42,271 bases of DNA from a virus. Its lineage: Duplodnaviria > Heunggongvirae > Uroviricota > Caudoviricetes. The notes beneath the pieces were generated by a model. It did no database searches. It saw nothing but the letters and a program-made list of their open reading frames with translations, and was not told where the DNA came from. This document shows positions 25,488 to 29,280 of this stretch, in pieces; the stretch's first letter is position 1, and each line of letters opens with the position of its first letter. Location: IMG/VR virus record IMGVR_UViG_2718218308_000003, positions 1 to 42,271 of that record; one strand, 5' to 3'. Both the position numbers and the translations under genes were made by a program.

Positions 25488-26012
25488 ATGTACTCCAATG
25501 AAGAAGCCACCGACATAGCCTCCTCCATTCATCGTGAAACTATTTTCATCTACCCAGTAATGAATTCTTTGTAGAGTTGTGATCAATACAACTCACTAAT
25601 GGAGAGGCTTGTCCAACACGTTGGACAAGTTTCCTGTTTGATTTACTGGACACTATAGAAGGACAGAATGCCTTCATCACTCGAATAACATCAATTAAGG
25701 AGGTTCAACATGTTTCATTCCACAAATCATCAGGCTGTAATTATGGCTGCATCAGCTTGTGCCACAGACCTTTTCCGCTTCACTTTAAGCCTGATTCATT
25801 TCTACCTGACCGGCTCGCCTCTATCTTTTTAATCCCCGCTTTATCCAAATTGCATTGCCAGAATGCCGACAACAGACTGACATTCAAATCCTGACTACCT
25901 CCAATAGTCTGACCGTACACCTATATAGTTTTAATTTTCATCAATCCATTTAACTATCGTTTAATTGTTGTCACATAGGATTCTGCCGTTTTTAACAATG
26001 CAGGATAATAAG

Positions 26013-26306
26013 ATGAAAAAAATGTTGTTTTCTGCCGCTCTGGCAATGCTTATTACAGGATGTGCTCAACAGACGTTTACTGTTGGAAACAAACCGACAG
26101 CAGTAACACCAAAGGAAACCATCACCCATCATTTCTTCGTTTCGGGAATTGGACAGGAGAAAACTGTTGATGCAGCCAAAATTTGTGGCGGCGCAGAAAA
26201 TGTGGTTAAAACAGAAACCCAGCAAACATTCGTAAATGGATTGCTCGGTTTTATTACTTTAGGCATTTATACTCCGCTGGAAGCACGTGTGTATTGCTCA
26301 CAATAA
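26013..26306 (+). CDS. bor: Bor-family outer-membrane lipoprotein (lambda Bor / Iss-like serum-resistance protein)
   Basis: 97-aa protein MKKMLFSAALAMLITGCAQQTFTV... with a lipobox (LITGC); it closely matches lambda Bor as I recall it. It sits antisense between the lysis genes and the packaging genes, as in lambda. Confidence 0.85.
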   Translation: MKKMLFSAALAMLITGCAQQTFTVGNKPTAVTPKETITHHFFVSGIGQEKTVDAAKICGGAENVVKTETQQTFVNGLLGFITLGIYTPLEARVYCSQ

Positions 26307-26799: not shown

Positions 26800-27272
26800 A
26801 CCTCAATCTCTCTGACCGTTCCGCCTGCTTCTTTGAATTTTGCAATCAGGCTGTCAGCCTTATGCTCGAACTGACCATAACCAGCGCCCGGCAGTGAAGC
26901 CCAGATATTGCTGCAACGGTCAATTGCCTGACGAATATCACCGCGATCAATCATCGGTAAAGCGCCACGCTCCTTAATCTGCTGCAATGCCACAGCGTCC
27001 TGGCTTTTCGGAGAGAAGTCTTTCAGAGCAAGCTGCTTACGATAAGCATCCCACCAGCGTGAAAGAAGCTGATAACGTCCGGCGGCTGTTGATTTTAGTT
27101 TTGGGTTTAGTGTGACAAGTTTGCGAGGATGATCGGAGTAATCAGTAAATAGCTCTCCGCCTACAATGACGTCATAACCATGATTTCTGGTTTTCTGCCG
27201 TCCGTTATCCGTTCCTTCTGACCATGCCACCATATCGAGGAAAGCTTTACGCTGGGAATTTAGTGCCTGCAT
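26796..27272 (-). CDS. Endolysin, lambda R-type lytic transglycosylase
   Basis: The 158-aa protein is near-identical in pattern to lambda R as I recall it ([43 protein letters not shown]...). Confidence 0.85.
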
Positions 27273-27275
27273 AAA

Positions 27276-27602
27276 TTACTCCTTCGAGCTACCAAATTTG
27301 TTACCGATTACTCGCATTGCAGCCCCACGAATTGCATCGACACCAATCAGCCCAACACCGCCACCAATGGCAACAGAAAGAGATTTAGGCCATCCGACAT
27401 ACTCAAGAGCGGATGCAAAAGTCAGCGTCAGAGCACCACAGAGCAAAATCTCGAGCGTTTTTCGCTTCCACCCACCACCACCGCCAAAATAGGCAATGCG
27501 CAATCCAGCCATAACAATCGACATAATCACTGCGCCCAGTGGTGTGTCTCCACGCCACCAGCTCTGGACCAACTCCAGCCAGGTATTTGGGTTATGAGGC
27601 AT
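27276..27602 (-). CDS. Holin (lambda S-like, class I)
   Basis: 108-aa protein with three predicted transmembrane segments and a charged C-terminus, immediately upstream of the endolysin gene. Confidence 0.7.
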   Translation of the reverse strand: MPHNPNTWLELVQSWWRGDTPLGAVIMSIVMAGLRIAYFGGGGGWKRKTLEILLCGALTLTFASALEYVGWPKSLSVAIGGGVGLIGVDAIRGAAMRVIGNKFGSSKE

Positions 27603-27744
27603 TTGTAGTTATCTCTCACCTCGCTGAAACAGCAGGTGCAAATTGAGGGAACATCATGTACCGCAAATCAGAAGCGGAAACGTCAAAGAAGCCGAACCAA
27701 TGGATAACTGCGGAATAGGCCTAGACCAACGAATCCCCAGCCCC

Positions 27745-27776
27745 AGAAACGACAAAACCCGCTCGATGGCGGGTTT
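27745..27776 (-). terminator. Rho-independent terminator on the late-transcript strand upstream of the holin gene (candidate tR'-like attenuator)
   Basis: Hairpin AAACCCGC/GCGGGTTT (27755-27776); on the minus strand it is followed by TTTTGTCGTTTC. Confidence 0.45.
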
Positions 27777-27895
27777 AAGCTGTGTGGCGAAGTAACCACT
27801 CTTAACACGATACAATTTTTTTTGCGTACGCGTTAGTTTTTTATTACTTTACTTTTTGATACTATCGGCGTGGTTACAAACAAGGAGAACAGCAA

Positions 27896-28158
27896 TGAGT
27901 AACTACTTGGAAGTTAAGAGAAAAATTGGTCAATATGCATGTGTTACTCGGTGGGGTTTTCCCTGTGCCGAGCGTGAAATCACTTTGATACAAAATGACA
28001 TTAACTCCGCGATTCAAAGTGGTAAAGTTATAAGTCGTAGCATGCTCCAAGGCATTATCAGCCGTCATGTTCCCAATACCCATTTCTTAATCACCGACAG
28101 TGTGGACAACTCTGATCTTAACACTGCATTAAGAATGCTGGCGCCAAAACAAAAATGA
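27896..28158 (+). CDS. Hypothetical small soluble protein (87 aa), first gene of an antisense cargo cassette
   Basis: The ATG at 27896 is preceded by AAGGAGAA. AT-rich. Its stop overlaps the start of the next ORF (28155), which suggests translational coupling. Confidence 0.45.
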
Positions 28159-28895
28159 ATAATGATGTGTTTCAGATCAGCCCCGACGAAGTAACGTCGG
28201 AGCTGATTTCTGCAAAGGAAAGATTTTTACGTGGTATTCAGCCATACTTGTGTAATGGTATATCAAACCTTGCTGACCTACATGAAATTCAGCAGCATGC
28301 TTCAAAATATTTTAATACCGCTGTTAAATTAGTTCAAAAAGTAGATTTATGTAAACTGGATGACAATAAGACATTTGCCATTTCCTTAGTTGGAGACTGT
28401 CGAGCGGTTCTGGAAACTTATTTAGAATACTACGACATGATGGTGTCAAACATTAAATGCCTAGAAATTGATCCAAACAATATTGTACTGTATAGCAAAG
28501 ATGGTCTATCAAACCTCCAAAGAATCATTAAAAAGTATTCATCAAAAGATATTTACACACCTATTATTGCTGAATTTGAGTCTCGAAATTTGCCAATCGA
28601 TGGATTTACTATAGGCACACCAATGAATTGGAAATTAATTGTCACTGCCATTATTGGATTTTTAAGTTTTTGTATTTTTTTATCAATTACGCTGCTAATA
28701 CCAGATTTGAATGAATTTCAAAAGAAAATGATTTTCTCTTTATATTTCATGAGTGCGGCCGTTGGAATCTCGCCATTCATTGCAAATAATATAAAGGTCA
28801 ATGGGAAGATGGCATTTCGTGGTTCGGAATTCAAAGTATCTGCTGTTGGTGGTTTAGCAGCATTGATTGTTTCTTTCATCATCCAAGTAATTTAG
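28155..28895 (+). CDS. Hypothetical protein (246 aa) with a soluble N-terminal domain and two or three C-terminal transmembrane helices; candidate effector or superinfection-exclusion protein
   Basis: Hydrophobic segments LIVTAIIGFLSFCIFLSITLLIP, MIFSLYFMSAAVGISPFIA and AVGGLAALIVSFIIQVI in the C-terminal third. AT-rich codon usage. Antisense to the phage late operon. Confidence 0.55.
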   Translation: MNNDVFQISPDEVTSELISAKERFLRGIQPYLCNGISNLADLHEIQQHASKYFNTAVKLVQKVDLCKLDDNKTFAISLVGDCRAVLETYLEYYDMMVSNIKCLEIDPNNIVLYSKDGLSNLQRIIKKYSSKDIYTPIIAEFESRNLPIDGFTIGTPMNWKLIVTAIIGFLSFCIFLSITLLIPDLNEFQKKMIFSLYFMSAAVGISPFIANNIKVNGKMAFRGSEFKVSAVGGLAALIVSFIIQVI

Positions 28896-28897
28896 CA

Positions 28898-28917
28898 AAG
28901 AGGCCCTAAGGCCTCTT
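28898..28917. terminator. Stem-loop in the 26-bp gap between the convergent cassette and Q genes (possible bidirectional terminator)
   Basis: AAGAGGCC-CTAA-GGCCTCTT, a perfect 8-bp stem; weak T tracts on both sides. Confidence 0.4.
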
Positions 28918-28921
28918 ATAA

Positions 28922-29278
28922 TCATAGCATTGATAGCACACCACTAACAAAACCTAATGCTGTTTGCATATCTTTTCTAATTGTCCCATCAGAACACTTA
29001 CGCTTCTTCGCAATGGTGCGTAATGAAATACCAATAACAAAGTGGGCAATAACTAACTCATATTCTTCTTGTTTATATTTACGTAACCGTGCGACACAAC
29101 CGTCTATCATGATCCCTTCATCATCATCACACTGGAGGCGAGACTTTTTGCCATGAGGTAAAAGCCCCTTGAAGCCTGCAGCTATCGGTTGCCAGTCCAC
29201 ACCACTGTTATCTGCTGCCGCCCATGCTCCCCAGCGGTCCAAAACTTCATACATATCACGCATCAACCTTCTCCACAA
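28922..29278 (-). CDS. Late-gene antiterminator Q
   Basis: 118-aa protein with motifs I associate with the phage antitermination Q family (LDRWGAWAA, IAAGFKGLL, QCDDDEG); located upstream of the lysis genes. Confidence 0.65.
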   Translation of the reverse strand: MWRRLMRDMYEVLDRWGAWAAADNSGVDWQPIAAGFKGLLPHGKKSRLQCDDDEGIMIDGCVARLRKYKQEEYELVIAHFVIGISLRTIAKKRKCSDGTIRKDMQTALGFVSGVLSML

Positions 29279-29280
29279 AA

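Follow-up and report, generated by a model that had tools for sequence, protein, structure and literature searches.

Gene content of the cassette

The window analysed here, a 42,271-nucleotide (nt) stretch from an E. coli prophage that makes up IMG/VR record IMGVR_UViG_2718218308_000003, contains between the holin gene and the gene for antiterminator Q two plus-strand open reading frames (ORFs), here called gene A and gene B, both in antisense orientation relative to Q and to the lysis genes. Gene A (27895-28158, plus strand, ATG at 27895) encodes a soluble, basic protein of 87 amino acids (aa) with an isoelectric point of 9.4, and gene B (28155-28895, plus strand) encodes a 246-aa inner-membrane protein that consists of a helical N-terminal domain and three transmembrane (TM) helices. 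A first-pass annotation had reported the same two plus-strand genes and proposed them as a candidate defence or exclusion module; its coordinates for gene B hold, whereas gene A begins at 27895 and not at 27896. The RefSeq coding sequence for gene A at an identical E. coli locus is likewise 264 nt long. The neighbouring genes also agree with the earlier description: the holin gene S (27276-27602, minus strand), which is the first gene of the lysis cassette, encodes a lambda-family holin (PF05106, 5.7e-25), and Q (28922-29278, minus strand; PF06530) is convergent with the A-B cassette. In RefSeq, Q starts at an ATG yielding 113 aa, and in a sequence search of the PDB it was distantly related to Q21 only (E 0.003).

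The cassette, counted as 27843-28921, has a GC content of 0.362, against 0.44 in Q, 0.51 in holin S and 0.50 in the window, which bears out the lower GC noted previously. The genes overlap by the tetranucleotide ATGA, in which the TGA of A and the ATG of B are shared, and gene B lacks a Shine-Dalgarno (SD) sequence of its own; this arrangement fits translational coupling of the pair, as had been suggested. Gene A has a strong SD sequence (AAGGAG, 27882-27887) located 7 nt before its ATG. The upstream region of the cassette (27843-27894, plus strand) is cassette-specific and includes, in addition to this SD sequence, a T-run and an extended -10 promoter-like box at 27857-27865 on the plus strand (TG at 27857-27858, hexamer TACTAT at 27860-27865) with a predicted transcription start near 27872. 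The T-run and the TGnTAnnnT box are found at a constant distance from the start of A in E. coli, Klebsiella, and Citrobacter, while the surrounding sequence diverges, and we infer that the box serves as a promoter.

The probability that a 246-codon frame stays open by chance at the composition of the cassette is about 2e-8, as computed from base frequencies. In comparison with a 93%-identical E. coli allele, the ratio of nonsynonymous to synonymous substitution rates (dN/dS) is 0.24 for gene B and 0.45 for gene A, and in comparison with the Klebsiella and Citrobacter copies the proportion of nonsynonymous differences (pN) is well under that of synonymous differences (pS) for both genes. As judged from these substitution patterns, A and B are evolving under purifying selection.

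The A-B protein family

Protein A has no hydrophobic segment and is thus small and soluble, as had been stated. In protein B, the first 155-160 aa or so are soluble, and three hydrophobic segments follow (approximately 161-183, 192-210, and 228-246); the earlier count of two or three TM helices is thereby settled at three. The N-terminal domain, of about 155 aa, is predicted to be helical and cytoplasmic. By the positive-inside rule, and given a KxxKxxR-rich loop between TM2 and TM3, the probable topology of B is N-in and C-out. Conserved motifs of protein A are W-x-PT and, at the C-terminus, G[VIA]DN[ST]DL-x-[TA]LL. The family motifs of B are YFN, LLGAH, FAEDC, ANMQRMV, LPxxGF, PNPTxFQ, and AGGAxAxF; residues F53, Q122, and G150 are invariant, and K21, C82, L86, L146, P147, F151, G168, and G232 are nearly so.

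An exhaustive profile search found relatives of B in 79 clusters at E < 1e-3, 34 of them at E < 1e-10, and a further search with a profile of 57 B sequences added almost no new relatives. Most relatives are 245-270 aa long and share the architecture of B in the window. A few have exchanged the C-terminal part: in P0090, the TM segment is followed by an alpha/beta-hydrolase (PGAP1/DUF676-like); P0082 and P0088 are devoid of TM helices and have soluble tails in place of the TM part; and in P0070 the N-terminal helical domain is joined to DUF3298. The combination of one N-terminal domain with varied C-terminal parts resembles the modular pattern common in conflict systems. An assignment of the P0082 and P0088 C-termini to the Aravind-type effector-associated domain (EAD), made by eye, was discarded, as no Pfam family matched them at E <= 0.1.

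Neither protein belongs to a described family among the databases searched, in line with the first-pass annotation, which recognised neither sequence. No match at or near the curated thresholds was obtained for A or B in Pfam and NCBIfam. PADLOC-DB v2.0 returned nothing for A and only DndH for B (12.8 bits over 60 residues), and the PHROGs matches were confined to families of unknown function, phrog_31842 (5.6e-7) and phrog_5814 (2.7e-14). PDB sequence searches were empty for B, and no distinctive fold match was obtained for either protein. JukB, the effector of the jumbo-phage killer system (PDB 9jht_B), appeared at rank 16 among generic helical bundles, with 8% identity and with designed proteins placed higher, and was rejected as non-specific; the words "membrane" and "transmembrane" are absent from the Juk preprint. 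The relatives gave similar results. Pfam searches produced scattered sub-threshold TM noise only for the 57 B relatives and no match for the A paralogues described below or for the domain-swapped variants of B. PADLOC was also run on distant relatives, 21 of B and 7 of A: each family that matched was limited to at most 2 of the 150 scanned proteins, and the first B member had no score at all. An Rfam search of 27200-29400 gave only a chance match to rliI, far below threshold.

The window cassette is present in 21 of 5426 complete E. coli genomes, and close homologues of the A-B pair were found only in prophages of E. coli, Citrobacter, and Klebsiella. More distant B genes were detected by a genome scan with the main-clade profile at 32 loci, the hosts of which include Pseudomonas, Paraburkholderia, Parazoarcus, Methylobacter, Nitrosomonas, Vibrio, and Photobacterium, as well as Marinobacter, Marinomonas, Sulfurovum, Mariprofundaceae, Desulfobulbus, and Ignavibacteriales. 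A hidden Markov model (HMM) built from the enterobacterial A proteins detected an A-like ORF of about 83-90 aa directly upstream of B in 30 of the 32 loci; after one iteration of the HMM, an A-like gene was found directly upstream of B in 31. Two tandem A paralogues, A1 (the "KIKFGTAPNEPT" type) and A2 (the "W-x-PT" type), are present in 25 of these 31 loci, and one distant locus has three. Since two paralogues are found in most distant loci, the common form of the system is A1-A2-B, and A-B is the form of the enterobacterial prophages. Pseudomonas inefficax (L095) carries two complete systems in tandem (741-2304 and 3459-4711), in the second of which both A paralogues are fused into one 175-aa protein. 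The 4-nt overlap between the last A gene and B recurs across distant loci, and synteny together with gene overlap is kept between genera, where the proteins are 56-58% identical, and between phyla, where identity has dropped to about 20%. On these comparisons, A and B are not orphans; the operon represents a conserved, unnamed family.

This conservation bears on two alternative explanations. The first is that the cassette is decaying foreign DNA without a current function: its AT-rich composition suggests a recent horizontal origin, and it is rare in E. coli, as the genome count shows. The frames are nevertheless intact, with the low dN/dS values given above, the promoter-like box and the SD sequence are conserved, and synteny and overlap persist across genera and phyla. 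A reading without function is already disfavoured, and we regard it as extremely improbable. The second is a toxin-antitoxin (TA)-like addiction module, in which B would be a membrane toxin and A a labile neutraliser, and which would serve to maintain a prophage or island and have no phage-sensing role. The pairing of a membrane protein with a small soluble one that is translated immediately before it and coupled to it would suit such a module, as would the occurrence of A-B on mobile elements and in variable regions and the tandem duplicate with variable flanks, a picture also seen at TA loci. On the other side, B, with its 246 aa and a conserved soluble domain of about 155 aa, is unlike the known small membrane toxins; the two distinct conserved A paralogues of most systems would be unusual for antitoxins; and A has no recognisable DNA-binding fold for autoregulation. 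We consider an addiction module quite unlikely; the functions of TA and abortive infection (Abi) systems are not mutually exclusive.

The Q-proximal slot and other locations of the family

The first-pass annotation had pointed to the interval between Q and S in related phages as the place to learn whether the cassette is a variable insert. A survey covered 80 IMG/VR loci with close relatives of Q (L012-L091), 79 of which could be scored; in the remaining one, the conserved segment was not found. In all 79, the interval between the Q stop and a conserved element of 89 base pairs (bp) is filled with 618-2960 bp and is never empty. Thus, the A-B cassette is not a one-off insertion. The interval is variable cargo: its occupants fall into 13 unrelated sequence clusters, all with a GC content of 0.31-0.39, and their main ORFs are antisense to Q, with the exception of one plus-strand ORF in cluster 10. 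The cassette type of the window accounts for 8 of the 80 loci.

Most of the cassette types have no database match, and several of the others resemble defence genes. The most frequent occupant is a 308-aa protein with a 182-aa TM protein (25 of the 80 loci), followed by a 407-aa protein with an NA37-like protein of 395 aa (15 loci) and by the PADLOC candidate PDC-M53 (SfII_50/SfII_49; 11 loci). Further types are a three-gene set including an MBL-fold protein, with weak matches to RTasMBL and LmuA, accessory proteins of the DRT and Lamassu systems; a single 427-aa protein; a single 294-aa protein with an Ion_trans_2 domain and a K-channel-like TTTTFGD filter; a GmrSD_N protein with an ORF resembling, by eye, a cytosine C5-methyltransferase; and a RelA_SpoT protein that corresponds to the PADLOC candidate PDC-S33 (1.9e-114). 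The slot of Shigella phage SfII itself holds an antisense two-gene cassette, PDC-M53A/B (2e-32 and 3e-54). Four of the remaining cassette types encode a soluble protein paired with a TM protein; these four pairs showed no homology to one another or to A or B.

The boundaries of the slot are sharp. Q alleles cease to be homologous at nt 330-351 of the 357-nt gene, which places the right-hand junction within the 3' end of Q; each cassette type is paired with its own Q allele. The left boundary is the 89-bp element (27754-27842, minus strand), which belongs to the phage backbone and not to the cassette: it begins at the same base beside all 13 cassette types and is present in about 1100 of the 5426 E. 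coli genomes, whatever the cassette. Most of these roughly 1100 genome matches are explained by the element. Its layout is CTAACGCGTACGCAAAAA..TAnnGT..TGTTAAGAGTGG..CACACAG, or equally CTAACGCGTACGCAAAAA..TAnnGT..TGTTAAGAGTGGTTACTTCGCCACACAG, followed by an intrinsic terminator (27776-27755) with a T-run on the late strand. In Klebsiella and Citrobacter, the core of the element is kept and the sequence of the terminator hairpin is different.

The known design of a Q cassette comprises a promoter, a Q-binding element, a sigma-dependent pause element, and a terminator (bioRxiv 10.1101/651190). By analogy, the 89-bp element may contain the Q-dependent late promoter PR' with a TAnnGT -10 box, the Q-loading site, and the terminator tR'; the palindrome ACGCGTACGC in the spacer is a candidate Q-binding element, TTAAGAGT a pause-like element, and the hairpin at 27776-27755 the putative tR'; the late leader would start near 27805-27810 (minus strand). 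A consensus promoter scan called no promoter within the element. A different location for the late promoter, within the 3' end of Q (TTGTTA-18-TGcTATGAT, 28950-28921, minus strand), was rejected as PR' because this stretch lies where Q homology breaks and varies with the cassette type. This sequence (28921-28950, minus strand), a good sigma-70 match with an extended -10 that looks more like a promoter than the element does, overlaps the last codons of Q and points antisense into the cassette; it could drive a cassette-specific antisense RNA or could be a chance match.

Hairpins on both sides had been taken previously as signs that the cassette is an insulated unit. Both do fold: the left one (27755-27776) has a dG of -13 to -15 (z -1.8/-2.3), and the right one (28898-28917), a GC hairpin of the form AAGAGGCC-CTAA-GGCCTCTT situated where genes B and Q converge, between their stops, has a dG of -13.4/-14 (z -3.0/-2.3). 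The right hairpin has weak T-runs on both strands and probably terminates transcription in either direction, and the other cassette types mostly carry their own, differing GC hairpin at the Q-stop junction, as seen by eye in the junction sequences. The left hairpin, however, is part of the widespread backbone element, and if the element has been read correctly, it would be the terminator of the late leader rather than an insulator of the cassette.

The same reading would place the cassette between Q and PR', outside the late unit and upstream of the position of Stx genes. The order in phage Stx2a_1447 is Q, an antisense cassette, the short conserved segment, a hypothetical gene, a methylase gene, tRNA genes, and stx2AB. 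The first-pass annotation had equated the location of A-B with the slot of the Stx toxin genes, but in this phage stx2 lies beyond the 89-bp element and the equivalent antisense cassette lies on its Q side. Therefore, A-B occupies a separate, Q-proximal sub-slot that precedes the Stx slot. It probably does not belong to the late transcription unit and differs from Stx-type late-operon cargo in both its strand and its position relative to the conserved element. The antisense pair in Stx2a_1447 (L011, 3130-4693) encodes a 343-aa protein and a 179-aa TM-rich protein, without a PADLOC match.

Relatives of A and B are also found in other phage slots. In a tblastn search against sequenced phages, B matched the P2-like phage OU784750, which encodes an A-like protein of 85 aa (HMM, 8e-24) and a B-like protein of 233 aa with three TM helices (hhalign, 100%, 1e-55). 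This pair has a GC content of 0.356, versus 0.50-0.56 in its flanks, and lies antisense between the tail-fibre genes (G) and the sheath gene FI, which is the position of fun(Z) in P2; the P2 annotation of fun(Z) reads "blocks growth of T5; lysogenic conversion". The Z region of P2 is a recurrent site of foreign genes and a known locus of horizontal gene transfer (PMC3091744). The P2-type version of A-B was found in 1 of the 5426 complete E. coli genomes. A scan of viral contigs with the main-clade profile gave a single contig, L128, of a Vibrio-type P2-like phage, with the order: relative of the replication gene A protein (52% identity), Ogr-like zinc-finger ORF, A1, A2, B, portal-like gene, and terminase-like gene; the names of the Ogr-like, portal-like, and terminase-like genes were assigned by position and by eye. 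The A1-A2-B locus of this contig corresponds to the gpA-gpQ (gpA-portal) hotspot of P2-like phages, which in E. coli P2-like phages is a defence hotspot containing old and tin (Rousset et al., PMC9122126). The relatives of A-B thus occupy three distinct accessory slots of temperate phages, two of which are tied to exclusion or defence in the literature.

These locations are informative about another explanation, that A-B assists the late or lysis functions of the phage itself, for instance by setting the time of lysis, as an antiholin, or by modulating Q. All enterobacterial lambdoid examples lie between Q and the holin gene, always convergent with a PF06530 Q, and B is a membrane protein like holins and antiholins. 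Transcription of A-B is, however, directed away from the late operon; the lysis module next to the pair is of three different kinds (S/R/Rz, essD/rrrD, and holin_3_3 with GH108); the same slot is filled with unrelated genes in sister phages; and homologues are found in non-phage chromosomes and at the tail-gene and replication-gene junctions of P2-like phages. A role in lysis is thus very unlikely.

Some of the chromosomal copies lie near defence genes. In Pseudomonas sp. PSB18, A1-A2-B is located about 100 bp downstream of a Gabija-like pair, in which a UvrD-family helicase accompanies a class-2 OLD nuclease. A PADLOC search of 122 neighbouring ORFs from 31 loci matched GajA, PDC-S20, and PifA, with two members each, as well as related ATPase models. 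Counted without a background rate, the defence genes near chromosomal A1-A2-B are suggestive of a defence role. In two Pseudomonas loci (L096, 4760-6334, and L120, 4235-5848), a gene for a protein of 524-537 aa without a Pfam match faces the A-B operon in convergent orientation, and the two PDC-S20 matches (4.8e-154) probably come from this protein. Other neighbours identified by eye include a patatin-like protein, a KAP-type NTPase, an integrase, transposase genes, and a KilA-N protein. In Photobacterium (L105) and Motilimonas (L114), an integron-type integrase, a transposase, and a group II intron reverse transcriptase were seen by eye, and it is possible from these neighbours that some A-B copies are integron cassettes.

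Function of the operon

The reading that we favour, from comparative genomics and with somewhat better than even confidence, is that A-B is an anti-phage defence or exclusion module that is expressed in the lysogen and acts at the membrane; any one specific mechanism deserves less than half of that confidence. It is suggested by the ever-filled, variable Q-proximal slot and its co-occupants, which include PADLOC candidates, by the relatives in exclusion and defence slots of P2-like phages, and by the Gabija-like neighbour, as well as by the pairing of A and B that is kept across phyla, with overlaps, paralogue duplication, a fusion, and a tandem copy, and by the varied C-terminal parts joined to the N-terminal domain of B. 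This comparative evidence points in the direction of the original proposal, whereas the specific roles offered there, sensor, regulator, or antitoxin for A and Abi effector for B, are matched by no homology or fold similarity and stay conjectural.

In the proposed model, A-B would be an accessory "moron" operon that protects the lysogen from other phages via a membrane-acting effector. A sigma-70 extended -10 promoter of its own would drive its transcription in the prophage state, without dependence on the late operon, and A would be made in fixed proportion to B through translational coupling. Protein A may bind the cytoplasmic helical domain of B and either keep B inactive or perceive the incoming phage. 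Upon infection, B would change its state in the inner membrane and then dissipate the membrane potential, resulting in abortive infection, as RexB does for lambda; alternatively, it would block genome entry or an early step of infection, an exclusion mechanism like that of P2 Fun(Z) or the Sie proteins. Most other bacteria would have the A1-A2-B form, one A paralogue having been lost in the enterobacterial prophages.

A lysogenic-conversion factor with a benefit for the host unrelated to phages, such as tolerance of envelope stress, resistance to colicins or contact-dependent toxins, or colonisation, would also agree with B being a membrane protein without an enzymatic motif, and the same prophage bears another AT-rich antisense moron, the serum-survival lipoprotein gene iss/bor (25965-26306). 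The family is nevertheless found in free-living marine, soil, and sediment bacteria, which makes a role specific to animal hosts less likely, and the repeated presence in exclusion and defence slots of phages, together with the Gabija-like neighbour, suits functions in conflict better. We consider such a conversion factor unlikely and retain defence or exclusion as the preferred function.

The closest functional analogue of a defence module of this kind would be the non-homologous RexA/RexB pair of lambda. Both are two-gene prophage modules of a soluble and an inner-membrane protein, expression of A-B in the lysogen being presumed, and membrane depolarisation on superinfection, as by RexAB, serves as a working model for A-B. 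RexB, of 144 aa, spans the membrane four times and lacks a soluble domain, whereas in B a helical domain of about 155 aa precedes three TM helices; A, with 87 aa, is much shorter than RexA (279 aa). RexAB is located in the immunity region, and A-B in the Q-proximal slot. No homology of B to RexA or RexB was detected by hhalign (probabilities of 0.2% and 0.3%).

Other known systems share with A-B either the location or the architecture. P2 Fun(Z) has the G-FI slot, the antisense orientation, and the AT-rich locus in common with the homologues in OU784750, whereas the window copy resides in a lambdoid phage; Fun(Z) is a single protein of 528 aa that is unrelated to B in sequence (best BLASTP E 5.7). 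PDC-M53, itself an unvalidated candidate, occupies the same Q-proximal slot as A-B and is also an antisense pair in which one protein has TM helices, but its order is different, a soluble protein of about 340 aa being followed by a TM protein of about 190 aa. A and B had no PADLOC match to PDC-M53A/B and only phmmer E > 1 against the cluster-2 proteins. In Kiwa KwaA/B, Rst_Hydrolase-3Tm, the 2TM effectors of retrons and CBASS, and SLATT proteins, a cytoplasmic partner or domain is coupled to a membrane-spanning effector. Their likeness to A-B is architectural only: the PADLOC and Pfam models of these TM-effector systems matched neither A nor B nor the 28 distant relatives. The alpha/beta-hydrolase fused after the TM region in P0090 is in line with such systems.

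AT-rich prophage cassettes that lie in hotspots and encode a membrane effector are familiar as a general kind, and candidates of this sort are numerous. As far as the searched literature shows, the A and B proteins, the A1-A2-B organisation, and the Q-proximal hotspot are undescribed: searches for the accessions, for the PDC names, and for a described Q-proximal hotspot found nothing within the collection searched. A broader proposal is that A1-A2-B is an unnamed, widespread immune system, ranging from Proteobacteria to Ignavibacteriales and composed of a new sensor or regulator fold and a membrane effector, and that the gap between Q and PR' is an undescribed lambdoid defence hotspot with at least 13 cassette types, mostly uncharacterised, one of them immediately upstream of the stx2 late unit. 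We put its chance at slightly below even.

If confirmed, A-B would be a new anti-phage family, compact (about 1 kb) and portable. Since no known sensor or effector is homologous to it, both its trigger and its action on the membrane would then be novel. A lambdoid hotspot is precisely delimited by the 3' end of Q and the 89-bp element and could be mined systematically, like those of P2 and P4. In Stx2a phages, defence cargo resident in this slot could shape the phage co-infection of Shiga toxin-producing E. coli (STEC) strains. The 89-bp element is, in addition, a candidate late promoter, Q-loading site, pause site, and terminator for a family of 113-118-aa Q proteins that is biochemically unstudied.

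Two other features of the window may be noted. A tRNA-Thr (CGT) gene, thrW, is located at 40828-40903. The iss/bor lipoprotein gene lies on the plus strand just downstream of the Rz genes with a GC content of 0.39-0.42, and is the second antisense moron within the same prophage as A-B.

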